From a virus, in IMG/VR virus record IMGVR_UViG_3300028888_003076: a stretch of 12,647 nucleotides of DNA, one strand, 5' to 3'. Below the pieces are notes generated by a model. That model was not told where the DNA came from. It made no database searches and worked only from the letters and a program-made list of their open reading frames with translations. How positions within the stretch are numbered: the stretch's first letter is position 1; each line of letters starts with the position of its first letter. Both the position numbers and the translations under genes were made by a program. Of the stretch, positions 7,775-8,826 are shown piece after piece.

Positions 7775-7970
7775 ATTAATACTTTTTATACATAGTTAAA
7801 CCGACCGGCTTCAAAAATTTTTTCGTTTGCTCTGGAGTCGTATTGCCAGTTATAGTTTTGTTTTGTCTATGAAAGTTAAAAATAGAGGTGTTAAAATGAG
7901 AATGAAAATTTTTGTGCGAGGCAAATAGAATTAAATCCGTGGCTCCTCATTTAAAGTATGTTTTTTTTAT

Positions 7971-7999
7971 ATTATATCATATTATTTTATATTTGTCAA
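7971..7999 (-). promoter_or_regulatory. Consensus promoter TTGACA-N17-TGaTATAAT in the minus orientation, in tandem upstream of class-I copy 4
   Basis: The -35 is at 7999-7994 and the -10 at 7976-7971, with TG at 7978-7977. The roughly 200-nt leader contains a 19-codon uORF and the ccgaccggctt motif. Confidence 0.55.
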
Positions 8000-8245
8000 T
8001 TATTAAATAAAAACTTTTATTTATTTAAAAGCCGCATATGCTTACTTTTCCTTTCTCTGTTCCTCTTGGAACTCGTATGCCAGGCATAATTCTTGTCCTC
8101 CGCACTACTTTTAAAAGTAGAAACGTGAATTCGTGTTAATTTTTTTTAATGCGTGGCAATTTGACCTTTAATTTTGGCTTCTGGAATAGGATAAAATGAT
8201 GCTATTACCCGGACGTGCGGCCTAAAAAAAATAGTTTTTTTTGAT

Positions 8246-8274
8246 ATTATATCAAATTTTTTTTTGAAAGTCAA
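8246..8274 (-). promoter_or_regulatory. Consensus promoter TTGACT-N17-TGaTATAAT in the minus orientation, embedded in the palindrome ttgatattatatcaa between symmetric A/T runs
   Basis: The -35 is at 8274-8269 and the -10 at 8251-8246, with an extended TG. Downstream is a 20-codon micro-ORF (8087..8025, MPGIRVPRGTEKGKVSICGF) with the RBS GGAGG at 9-nt spacing. Confidence 0.5.
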
Positions 8275-8332
8275 GTTTCCGACCGGCTTTTTTTACCAAA
8301 AATAGGCAAAAAAAGTGGTATTTTTTCGAGAT

Positions 8333-8425
8333 AAAACTAGTCAAAAACGCCGCAAAACTAAGTAAAAACAAGTTAAAACTACTTAAAAACGTAAAAAAAC
8401 TAGTTCTTTTTGATAAAAAAACTAG
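8333..8425. repeat. Phased A-tracts, predicted intrinsic DNA curvature
   Basis: The sequence aaaactagtcaaaaacgccgcaaaactaagtaaaaacaagttaaaactacttaaaaacgtaaaaaaactagtt carries A4-6 runs every 10-11 bp across about 7 helical turns. Confidence 0.6.
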
Positions 8426-8454
8426 TTAAAATTTTTTATATACTGGTTTTAAAG

Positions 8455-8548
8455 CCACTTTTGTTTTAAAATCAATCGCATATGTGACTAGCGAGAACCA
8501 CCGACCGGTGAAATTAGGCCCACTTTTGTTTAAAATCGAGCCGCATAT
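8455..8548. repeat. Direct repeat of about 29 bp: cacttttgttt(t)aaaatcNNNcgcatatg, two copies; a third gccgcatatg lies at 8031-8040
   Basis: Copies are at 8455-8483 and 8520-8548. The motif ccgaccgg(c/t) recurs at 7801, 8280 and 8502. Confidence 0.5.
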
Positions 8549-8612
8549 GGAGATTTTTTCCAGACATTGTGATATTTTTGTCAAGACATAGCGGCCGGAC
8601 TTTAACGCAGTA

Positions 8613-8669
8613 GCGATTTAGCGATTTAGCGTGCTAAAGTGTTAGCGATTTAGCGTAGCAAAGTGCACA
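8613..8669. repeat. Direct repeats ttagcgatttagcgtRctaaagtg, two copies of about 23 bp with an extra tagcgatt unit. Candidate operator 45-100 bp upstream of the 8713 promoter.
   Basis: The sequence is tagcgatttagcgatttagcgtgctaaagtg followed by ttagcgatttagcgtagcaaagtg. Confidence 0.5.
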
Positions 8670-8712
8670 GTTTCGGGATATTATGTAAACCAATTTTTGT
8701 GCAATATTTTAC

Positions 8713-8741
8713 TTGACAATTTTCCTGAAATATGATATAAT
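8713..8741 (+). promoter_or_regulatory. Perfect consensus sigma70 promoter TTGACA-N17-TGaTATAAT on the plus strand
   Basis: The -35 is ttgaca at 8713-8718. The spacer is 17 nt. The -10 is tgatataat at 8733-8741. No plus-strand CDS follows, only the structured RNA below. Confidence 0.7.
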
Positions 8742-8745
8742 AGAA

Positions 8746-8826
8746 GTTCGGCCCTACGCGTGCGCCTCCGGGCCGATTTGCCCGGGCATTATTCATAGGG
8801 GTGTATTATTATACACCCCTTATTTG
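8746..8826 (+). ncRNA. Candidate small RNA of about 80 nt, spanning exactly from the consensus promoter to the intrinsic terminator
   Basis: Stem 1 is cggccc/gggccg (8749-8754 and 8770-8775) with a 15-nt loop. It is followed by the GCCCGGGC palindrome at 8780-8787. The terminator hairpin ggggtgta-ttatta-tacacccc (8798-8819) is followed by ttatttg. There is no ORF and no tRNA cloverleaf. Confidence 0.45.
8798..8826. terminator. Intrinsic terminator hairpin (8-bp GC-rich stem). It serves the plus-strand sRNA and abuts the TAA of the minus-strand operon ending at 8820.
   Basis: Perfect stem ggggtgta/tacacccc with a 6-nt loop. A T-rich tract follows on the plus strand. Confidence 0.6.

Follow-up and report, generated by a model that had tools for sequence, protein, structure and literature searches.

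A conserved non-coding kilobase as a putative transcription-control region of a large TAG-recoded phage

The region under study is a gene-free stretch of 1,046 bp (positions 7775-8820, hereafter the hub) within IMG/VR virus record IMGVR_UViG_3300028888_003076, whose analysed DNA of 12,647 nt is termed the window. We lean towards reading the hub as a conserved phage transcription-control region, situated between an array of early-gene cassettes and the gene of a 130-aa protein in a large phage that uses TAG as a sense codon; its mode of action is deduced from sequence. An earlier note, made from the letters of the window alone, had described the same region as non-coding DNA with several promoters, bent DNA and repeats, resembling a lytic origin or a genetic switch rather than spacer DNA. 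Beyond that description, we present a candidate structured small RNA (sRNA) gene bounded by a rightward promoter (P+) and a terminator, tandem leftward promoters that would feed the 130-aa gene, and a palindromic box, GCCCGGGC, that ties the right edge of the hub to a genome-wide punctuation of cassettes.

Conservation and coding capacity

Conservation of the hub was assessed on nine relatives, i.e. syntenic loci found through homologs of the 130-aa protein at 73-98% identity, each of which was compared with the window; loci and stretches of relatives bear L-numbers, and those with 42% identity to the 130-aa protein of the window are referred to as the far group. Mean identity to the nine relatives is 91% for the leftward promoter P1 with its 5' untranslated region (5'UTR), 89% for the P2 leader, 100% for the P2 promoter (9/9 relatives scored), 87% for the P3 leader, 97% for the P3 promoter (~95% retained in the far group), 92% for an A-tract array, 91% for 8643-8712, and 93% each for the P+ promoter and the 5' part of the candidate sRNA. 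Hub segments thus average 82-100% identity except the looser 8453-8600 (78%) and 8601-8642, the distal TAGCG cluster (61%). By comparison, fourfold-degenerate sites average 58% in the 130-aa gene and 63% in the gene of an 81-aa protein on the other flank, and codon positions 1 and 2 of the 130-aa gene average 89%. Since the hub is far more identical than the fourfold-degenerate sites of the flanking genes, almost all of this ~1 kb of non-coding DNA is, by this measure, under purifying selection. The view that the region is not spacer DNA is thereby borne out, and its architecture recurs in distant phages as described below.

No open reading frame (ORF) of 60 aa or more with an ATG, GTG or TTG start lies in 7775-8820 according to the ORF list, in agreement with the earlier note. 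The longest stop-to-stop frames of the hub have 63 aa in the standard code, 101 aa with TAG as sense and 82 aa with TGA as sense, none of which departs much from the shuffle mean or leaves the shuffle range; the shuffle comparison covers these three codes, the TAA-sense value having none. Neither the 63-aa frame (minus strand) nor the 101-aa frame (plus strand, TAG sense) stays open in relatives, frameshifts or stops breaking both. Throughout the hub, variable alignment columns are free of 3-nt periodicity (p = 0.3-0.8), and the flanking genes do display it in their substitutions, strongly for the 130-aa gene (p = 8e-9) and also for the 81-aa gene (p = 0.002). Gene calling left the equivalent gap without a called gene in every relative. 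Judged by its frames and its substitution pattern, the hub is non-coding.

A gene written in a recoded code, or a set of translated micro-ORFs, could nevertheless be thought to hide in such DNA, and a coding sequence under another genetic code had been allowed for from the start. TAG is indeed read as sense in part of the window, as can be deciphered from the plus-strand ORF 3890-4591, which is open only with TAG as sense and has a formate/nitrite-transporter Pfam match across three in-frame TAG codons (E = 2e-20). The recoded TAG is used by plus-strand genes at 3890-6279, and the early cassettes on the minus strand have open frames under the standard code. Hidden coding capacity of the hub is further favoured by the 20-aa micro-ORF of the earlier note (MPGIRVPRGTEKGKVSICGF; 8087..8025, minus), which is present with a GGAGG ahead of it in this genome and whose MPGIRVPRG portion is kept in most relatives. 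However, the frames of the three codes are unremarkable against shuffles and broken in relatives, codon periodicity is lacking, and the micro-ORF loses its Shine-Dalgarno (SD) sequence, start, frame or stop in several relatives: apart from the window only L017 has the GGAGG, L011 has ATA in place of the start, a 1-nt deletion is carried by L009 and L019, and the stop is lost in L003 and L015. MPGIRVPRG is kept via invariant nucleotides and not via synonymous variation, and no codon periodicity was detected at 8025..8087 (p = 0.84). The second micro-ORF, given as 11 aa at 7896..7931 with a strong ribosome-binding site, did not hold in that form, for it has 10 aa (7896-7928, plus) with a TAG stop, or 12 aa if TAG is read through. 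As compared across relatives the micro-ORFs are not conserved coding units, although the 20-aa one may be translated in this particular genome, and hidden coding is a very improbable explanation of the hub.

Promoters, bent DNA and palindromes ahead of the 130-aa gene

The three promoters of the TTGACA class listed in the earlier note were recovered. P2 (TTGACA-17-TATAAT; 7999..7971, minus) and P+ (TTGACA-17-TATAAT; 8713..8741, plus) match the consensus at 12/12 positions and P3 (TTGACT-17-TATAAT; 8274..8246, minus) at 11/12, all with a 17-nt spacer and a TG-extended -10. Three matches of at least 11/12 in 1,046 bp compare with 0.039 expected, and 0/1000 dinucleotide shuffles reach three. The hexamers and TG of P+ are identical in aligned relatives including the far group, except for one -10 base in L005 and L007. 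A further promoter, P1 (TTGAAT-17-TATAAT; 7774..7746, minus; 10/12), forms with the conserved 5'UTR ATATATAGAAAATAAATAAAGGAG directly ahead of the ATG a promoter/UTR module at 7712..7774 (minus). Hexamers, spacers of 17±1 nt and conservation in relatives are as in sigma70/sigmaA-type promoters, and initiation in vivo is predicted.

P3, P2 and P1 are all directed leftward at the 130-aa gene (7711..7319), no terminator was found between the tandem promoters in the window or in L009, and the far-group locus L024 carries four promoters in tandem. The simplest reading is that P3, P2 and P1 constitute a triple tandem promoter for the 130-aa gene, with predicted leaders of ~30, 250 and 530 nt. The untranslated segment between P2 and P1 (P2 leader; 7775..7964, minus), whose 89% identity stands against 58% at fourfold sites, includes a 29-nt block at 7915-7943 that is invariant in a six-sequence alignment. 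The corresponding segment between P3 and P2 (P3 leader; 8043..8239, minus) opens on A8-CTA-T8 (8242..8224), which could form an A/U hairpin at the 5' end. An A-run and a GC-rich stem-loop come after the corresponding promoter in other phages, and the A8-CUA-U8 start of the predicted P3 transcript would fit a 5' stabiliser. No conserved RNA fold was detected in the P2 leader (alifold z -0.9 to +2.3) or in the P3 leader (z -0.9 on the plus and -1.5 on the minus strand), and the leader scores on both strands, -1.5 to +2.3, are like those of the coding control. A UAUGCC/GGCAUA leader hairpin was considered and dropped, its by-eye covariation being inconsistent, with one relative favouring the minus strand and another the plus.

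The 130-aa gene itself (7319..7711, minus; ORF list) is followed by a terminator-like hairpin at 7330..7308, after its stop. Its product has no Pfam or PHROG match and appears as a helical protein without a helix-turn-helix (HTH) signature; a profile search against PDB gave nothing below E = 0.28. The AlphaFold model was unusable (predicted local distance difference test score, pLDDT, of 43), and weak 'scaffolding' matches at E ~1e-3 were not accepted as function.

The P1-type promoter/UTR module is also found at 5322..5294 and 3423..3395 (minus) in the window and precedes members of the 130-aa family in other phages. In the window, the ~60-nt module, TTGAAT/TTGATT-17-TATAAT-ATATATAGAAAA..AAAGGAG, stands ahead of three different genes (3395-3423, 5294-5322 and 7746-7774, minus). 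Because it also precedes family members in other phages, this promoter-plus-leader module may represent a distinct promoter class. One of the genes driven by it encodes, at 912-3254 (minus), a 780-aa protein with a major-vault-protein shoulder and repeat domains (Pfam E = 7e-19 and 1e-8), which is unusual in a phage.

Recurrence of the hub was followed through the protein family downstream of it. Profile search with the 130-aa protein and its 150-160-aa counterparts retrieved at least 527 unannotated relatives of 130-160 aa. The family (proteins P0026-P0120) shares the N-terminus MNY.ND.L.RLQ.GE and the C-terminus DP.E.FLNKF; a pairwise link of the 130-aa protein to the L077 protein was not shown by BLASTP or hhalign, the family being united only by profile search. 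A gene-free gap of 0.4-1.1 kb lies ahead of the gene in every member examined (window clade, far group, L077, L101, L063/L147 and L153-L156), and each gap holds 2-4 tandem promoters, including a P1-type module. Across nine hubs of divergent phages, the density of CCGNNCGG is 6.1 per kb, as compared with 0.29 per kb outside, and that of (G)CATATG(C) palindromes of the GCATATGC type is 5.2 per kb, as compared with 0.12 per kb outside. A convergent sRNA-like unit is found in 6/9 of these hubs, and the remaining ones start with a same-strand promoter having CCCGGG in its spacer. Because the promoters and both palindromes recur ahead of the 130-aa family in nine divergent hubs, it is, on these counts, the vocabulary of the hub and not just its sequence that is conserved across divergent phages.

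The earlier note had also counted seven phased A-tracts at 8333-8425; these are confirmed, with starts at 8333, 8343, 8354, 8364, 8375, 8385 and 8393, and two more tracts start at 8415 and 8428. The resulting array of 7-9 A-tracts (8333..8431), a predicted intrinsic bend, lies 60-160 bp upstream of P3 with ACTAGT between (AACTAGT has 7 occurrences against 1.5 expected). Its best period is 10.5 bp and 0/500 shuffles equal its power. The phasing is found in the close relatives tested; L024 of the far group has six tracts with a 10.75-bp period, the phasing is weak in L022 (21/500 shuffles), and L005 has lost 21 bp, i.e. about two helical turns, from the array and retained the 10.5-bp period. The persistence of the phasing in the diverged L024, together with a deletion in L005 that removes two helical turns and keeps the period, argues for a conserved bend, which is most simply understood as a putative upstream activating element for P3.

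Several short palindromes and repeats accompany the promoters. CCGNNCGG has 6 occurrences in the window against 0.45 expected. A palindrome-like CCGACCGG box at 7801..7808 lies 26 nt upstream of the -35 of P1, where relatives have CCGGCCGG or CCGACCGG, and another at 8279..8286 lies 4 nt upstream of the -35 of P3. The ccgaccggctt motif, which had been counted three times, is thus exact as CCGACCGGCTT at 7801 and 8279 only, the site at 8501 having just CCGACCGG in common with them. P3 does have a palindrome, TTGATATTATATCAA at 8241-8255, containing its -10 as described earlier, but the runs taken for mirror-image A9/T9 are A8 (8224-8231), T8 (8235-8242) and T9 (8257-8265). The 29-bp repeat said to have a CATATG core exists in two copies and a partial third; it is however 30 nt long, with CATATG at its 3' end. 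The two copies, CCACTTTTGTTT(T)AAAATC..GCATATG at 8455-8484 and 8520-8549, are 80% identical and flank the CCGACCGG box at 8501-8508; conservation of copy 2 extends to the far group. The partial third copy at 8013..8042 ends in GCCGCATATGC, and GCCGCATATG there is conserved in relatives. The hexamer GCCGCA has 11 copies in the window against 2.45 expected, four of them in the hub (8031, 8216(-), 8349 and 8540), and two of these four are part of GCCGCATATG. Lastly, TAGCG repeats of the TAGCGATT kind lie in an 8-bp register at 8611, 8619, 8627, 8643 and 8651 (8611..8655). The 23-bp repeat formerly placed just upstream of the rightward promoter belongs here: TAGCGATTTAGCG is found at 8611, 8619 and 8643 (three 13-mers against 0.28 expected), but 58 nt separate the end of its last copy from the -35, so that it does not directly adjoin P+. 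Copy number in the distal cluster varies among relatives, and the proximal cluster is conserved including the far group. Like CCGNNCGG and GCATATGC, the TAGCGATT repeats are strongly enriched both in the hub and in its counterparts in distant relatives.

The CCGNNCGG and GCATATGC palindromes are best read as putative operators for dimeric regulators. An 83-aa ribbon-helix-helix (RHH)-like ORF at 5392-5643 (plus), with a match to phrog_876 'transcriptional repressor' at E = 1e-5, is a candidate for a protein that binds the palindromes or the 8-bp TAGCGATT repeats.

Divergent promoters under repressor operators would constitute a lysis-lysogeny switch, the resemblance to a genetic switch that the earlier note had proposed. 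P3 and P+ do diverge, over 438 bp rich in palindromes and repeats, and the RHH-like ORF has its weak repressor match. Yet all that P+ drives is an ~80-nt RNA, genes of a repressor or Cro-like type are missing from the flanks of the hub, and the 130-aa protein lacks an HTH or Pfam match. The palindromes, moreover, have no regular overlap with -35 or -10 hexamers, and no integrase or lysogeny gene was seen in the window or in the fetched flanks. The hub does not have the make-up of a switch of the CI/Cro type, and we regard this explanation as quite improbable.

The repeats at 8455-8549 could alternatively be taken for a unit resembling a mini-array of clustered regularly interspaced short palindromic repeats (CRISPR), given their geometry of 30 + 35 + 30 nt, or the hub for a packaging (pac) site, bent DNA and repeats being typical of some pac sites. 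The two repeats, however, are only 80% identical, and the interval between them is homologous in all relatives, contains the recurring CCGNNCGG box and is not a replaced spacer. No CRISPR-repeat Rfam match was obtained in the hub, the repeat is absent from the 185,579 species-representative genomes searched, and 8455-8549 does not qualify as a CRISPR mini-array. No terminase gene is found nearby by Pfam/PHROG annotation. Either identity has a minimal probability. Elsewhere in the window, a marginal Rfam CRISPR-DR6 match at 3725-3753 (plus; E = 0.1, 25.6 bits against a gathering score of 39) lies inside the opposite-strand frame 3433..3828, which is open with TAG as sense, and is probably due to chance.

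Candidate small RNA and cassette punctuation

The rightward promoter P+ precedes a candidate sRNA of ~80 nt (8746..8828, plus) that has a conserved fold and an intrinsic terminator. The fold comprises a 5' hairpin, UCGGCCC ... GGGCCGA (8748-8775), with an inner 3-bp helix, a single-stranded linker, GAUUUGCCCGGGCAUUAUUCAU, which carries GCCCGGGC at 8780-8787, and a terminator hairpin (8797-8820) with the tail UUAUUUGU. This terminator is common to the sRNA and the convergent 81-aa gene (8820..9065, minus; ORF list), the last cassette of the early-gene array, whose stop codon abuts the hairpin. As a single sequence the sRNA folds at -33.4 kcal/mol (z = -3.35). In an 11-sequence alignment, 97% of cells are paired and three pairs are changed on both sides (3/500 shuffles match); controls slid along the alignment fall to 29-52% paired, and the alifold z is -6.2. 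Three independent G-U wobbles fit as pairs on the plus strand only, the opposite strand having A·C mismatches in their place, and a plus-strand sRNA is thus indicated. The outer stem is kept in distant phages by C-G to G-C changes (L011, and L156 by eye) and a G-C to A-U change (L021).

A covariance model of the sRNA finds exactly one copy per locus and a homolog in the unrelated 63-kb contig L077 (E = 5e-7). Search of Rfam release 15 (E <=1 for the window, E <=10 for the hub) gave no family for the sRNA or the hub; at E <=10, 7700-8860 gave four matches, with 14-20 bits against gathering scores of 43-428. Seven matches to the sRNA core among 185,579 species genomes (e.g. Planctomycetota, Acidobacteriaceae and Desulfarculales) come from unrelated taxa and were judged to be chance GC-rich hairpins. 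With a promoter, an intrinsic terminator and a structure conserved through compensatory changes, the features of an sRNA gene are present and the transcript is predicted; 8746-8828 is a candidate for a new small RNA gene outside the Rfam families. When the window was scanned for targets of the sRNA, the recurrent linker sites found besides the antisense locus were the GCCCGGGC box, with no consistent pairing past the 8-10-nt palindrome. One further GU-rich duplex of the sRNA falls in the window at 9486-9506.

The GCCCGGGC box links the sRNA to the cassettes right of the hub (8820-12617, minus), which are small, standard-code and each equipped with a strong promoter of its own. Four copies occur in the window (8780-8787, 9897-9904, 10846-10853 and 12023-12030) against 0.01 expected. 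Read along the minus strand, each copy stands 0-9 nt after the stop codon and stem-loop of a cassette and, except for the copy at 8780, 12-34 nt ahead of the next TTGACA-N17-TATAAT; at 8780 the antisense of the sRNA hairpin and P+ replace the promoter. A tRNA-Glu (UUC) at 12114-12190 (minus) lies within the early cassette array and is followed by a stem-loop, GCCCGGGC and a promoter. In most relatives GCCCGGGC is also found early in the P3 transcript, just after A8N3T9; in the window this copy is degenerate.

IMG/VR was scanned for GCCCGGGC-N10-36-TTGACA-N17-TATAAT, and the composite was found in at least 120 stretches (L033-L152), the rough chance expectation being only a handful. Among the matches listed, contigs of tens to ~240 kb account for most stretches, frequently with 2-5 copies apiece, and for 183 GCCCGGGC instances the upstream 45 nt fold at -13.6 kcal/mol against -7.5 kcal/mol for shuffles. 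In the literature library searched, no paper was found that links the GCCCGGGC box with phage promoters. Stem-loop, promoter, small ORFs and indels are found together at 8780-8820 and at 9897, 10846 and 12023, and the GCCCGGGC element resembles a promoter early stem-loop (PeSL)-like punctuation with an added invariant palindrome. Among the relatives, different promoter-plus-small-ORF inserts lie inside the sRNA gene at L003 3660-3960 and L011 3500-3930 (~8787 in the window), where the terminator hairpin following the second box also differs; a weak PC4 Pfam match was obtained for one of these cassettes.

The same punctuation gives rise to the main alternative, namely that the hub consists of selectively maintained but otherwise 'empty' PeSL-like promoter/stem-loop cassettes, ORF-less products of modular shuffling that are only recombination substrates. 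The early cassettes are indeed punctuated by stem-loop, GCCCGGGC and promoter, a stem-loop and box come immediately after P+, most relatives have P3 followed by A8N3T9, 9 nt and GCCCGGGC, inserts have entered at the box in L003 and L011, and ORF-less promoter-to-box units exist in other phages. Mere recombination substrates, however, do not readily account for purifying selection over nearly the whole kilobase (82-100% against 58-63% at fourfold sites), for an sRNA hairpin kept by compensatory changes, or for a motif vocabulary conserved ahead of one gene family in distant phages. Empty cassettes are therefore held to be unlikely, and a transcription-control region remains the reading that we prefer.

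Certain observations weigh against that preference. Every functional step in it is read from DNA letters. The ~80-nt unit could itself be an 'empty' promoter/stem-loop cassette from modular shuffling, and L003 and L011 carry a promoter-plus-ORF cassette between two GCCCGGGC copies exactly at the sRNA site. The high conservation of the sRNA block in the far group is in part a matter of mosaic exchange, because its identity to the window there, ~90%, is shared by the adjacent 81-aa gene. The palindromes, read as putative operators, often stand just after small stem-loops, and they may have a role at the RNA level instead. Finally, the leaders are as conserved as codon positions 1 and 2 and yet have neither an ORF nor a conserved fold, and P3 and P2 might make independent non-coding RNAs in place of leaders.

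Origin, setting and comparison with known systems

The resemblance to a lytic replication origin, also put forward in the earlier note, would cast the repeats as initiator iterons, the bend and AT-rich DNA as aids to melting, and the promoters as activating or priming elements as at T7/T4 origins. Bent DNA, several repeat families and a GC content of ~30% are in keeping with this, as are the tandem promoters adjoining AT-rich DNA and the replication-type genes within 1-2 kb. A more canonical unit of initiator and iterons, however, is located at ~5845-6860. There, the ORF 5845-6279 (TAG as Gln) has weak PHROG matches to replication initiation (E = 1.3e-4) and to a DnaD-like protein (E = 2e-4); it is directly followed by at least 10 palindromes of the CGGTAAATTTTACCG type at 6330-6740 with ~33-nt spacing, beyond which lies an AT-rich (TATA)n block at 6740-6860. 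A likely replication origin, by this arrangement, is 5845-6860, ~1 kb left of the hub. Copy number may differ at 6591-6673, where the two BLAST pieces against a near-identical contig overlap.

The hub itself offers 8-bp palindromes and one 30-nt repeat of 2.5 copies in place of iterons of 17-22 bp. Cumulative GC skew is flat over 7650-8850, with extremes near 3700 and 7200 that track gene orientation, and no skew switch falls in the hub. Hubs elsewhere keep promoters and palindromes, shrink to 0.4-0.5 kb and have no evident A-tract array, and the hub always accompanies the 130-aa gene family. An origin function of the hub is accordingly judged improbable.

Identity of the window to a section of a jumbo-phage contig of 239,565 bp in IMG/VR is 97-99%, and a megablast search of 50,697 phage records with the entire window gave no match. 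The closest isolated relatives of its DnaQ-like exonuclease are those of Enterococcus phages at ~30% amino-acid identity. On account of these relatives, with which the TG-extended -10 promoters and the strong AGGAG ribosome-binding sites across the window agree, a Firmicutes-type host is indicated, and the source is probably a large, Firmicutes-infecting phage.

Under the preferred reading, a transcription-control region, host RNA polymerase would use P3, P2 and P1 to express the 130-aa gene at a very high level or in stages, with the bend as an upstream activating element boosting P3 and with phage or host dimeric regulators on CCGNNCGG, GCATATGC and TAGCGATT timing the promoters. The sRNA from P+, being convergent to the early array, may act as an antisense insulator against read-through of the array; alternatively, it could pair via the palindromic GCCCGGGC with the identical boxes after the stem-loop of each early cassette. 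A bolder extension, which we hold to be doubtful, is that the sRNA and the GCCCGGGC boxes form a network at the RNA level, in which the linker box would pair with the box after every early cassette, trigger processing or termination and so time the early-to-middle switch in large gut/rumen phages, the CCGNNCGG/GCATATGC hub setting the time at which the sRNA and the 130-aa protein are produced.

Annotation of large uncultivated phages rests almost wholly on their proteins, and here a non-coding kilobase appears to be selected as strongly as codon positions 1 and 2. If the proposed functions are true, the promoters, operators and sRNA would provide handles on the temporal programme of TAG-recoded gut/rumen phages, explain the punctuation and shuffling of early-gene cassettes, and supply strong portable promoters and insulators for Firmicutes. 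The more origin-like sequence 1 kb away would be relevant to building replicons from such phages.

Known systems share individual traits with the hub. In coliphage T7, the tandem early promoters A1-A2-A3 lie upstream of gene 0.3; in both cases strong promoters for host RNA polymerase stand in tandem over a few hundred gene-free bp and lead into the first small gene downstream. The hub differs in its 225-275 bp spacing, conserved inter-promoter segments, A-tract bend, palindrome clusters and unrelated downstream protein. Curved upstream DNA activates the early promoters of Bacillus phages SP82/SPO1 and the plc promoter of Clostridium perfringens, where a strong promoter is likewise preceded by A-tracts with a phasing of ~10.5 bp; the array of the hub is farther upstream, at about -60 to -160, and its activating effect is predicted. 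Lambda OOP RNA and P22 sar are phage cis-antisense sRNAs that are similar to the candidate in their size of ~77-80 nt, in having their own sigma70 promoter and intrinsic terminator, and in being convergent to a coding unit in a regulatory region near replication genes. Unlike them, the candidate overlaps the convergent coding sequence by only the stop codon and about two codons, antisense action would here target read-through or the 3'UTR, and there is no sequence or Rfam relationship. With iteron origins such as lambda ori the hub has in common repeats, bent DNA and AT-rich sequence near replication genes, whereas long iterons and an adjacent initiator gene are found at 5845-6860 and not in the hub.

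The closest comparison for the GCCCGGGC element is with the PeSLs of T4-type phages, composites of a stem-loop and a strong sigma70-like promoter that flank small ORFan cassettes (PMC2839356, PMC4122927), and between which recombination has been shown experimentally to give mini-circles (PMC2839356). In both systems relatives differ by cassette indels exactly at the elements, as in L003 and L011 here. The present element departs from PeSLs in its invariant 8-bp palindrome, GCCCGGGC, which stands 0-9 nt past the stem-loop and at a distance of 10-36 nt from the -35 that follows, and the composite is carried by at least 120 stretches of large phages without a demonstrated relation to T4, mini-circles being known for T4-type phages only.

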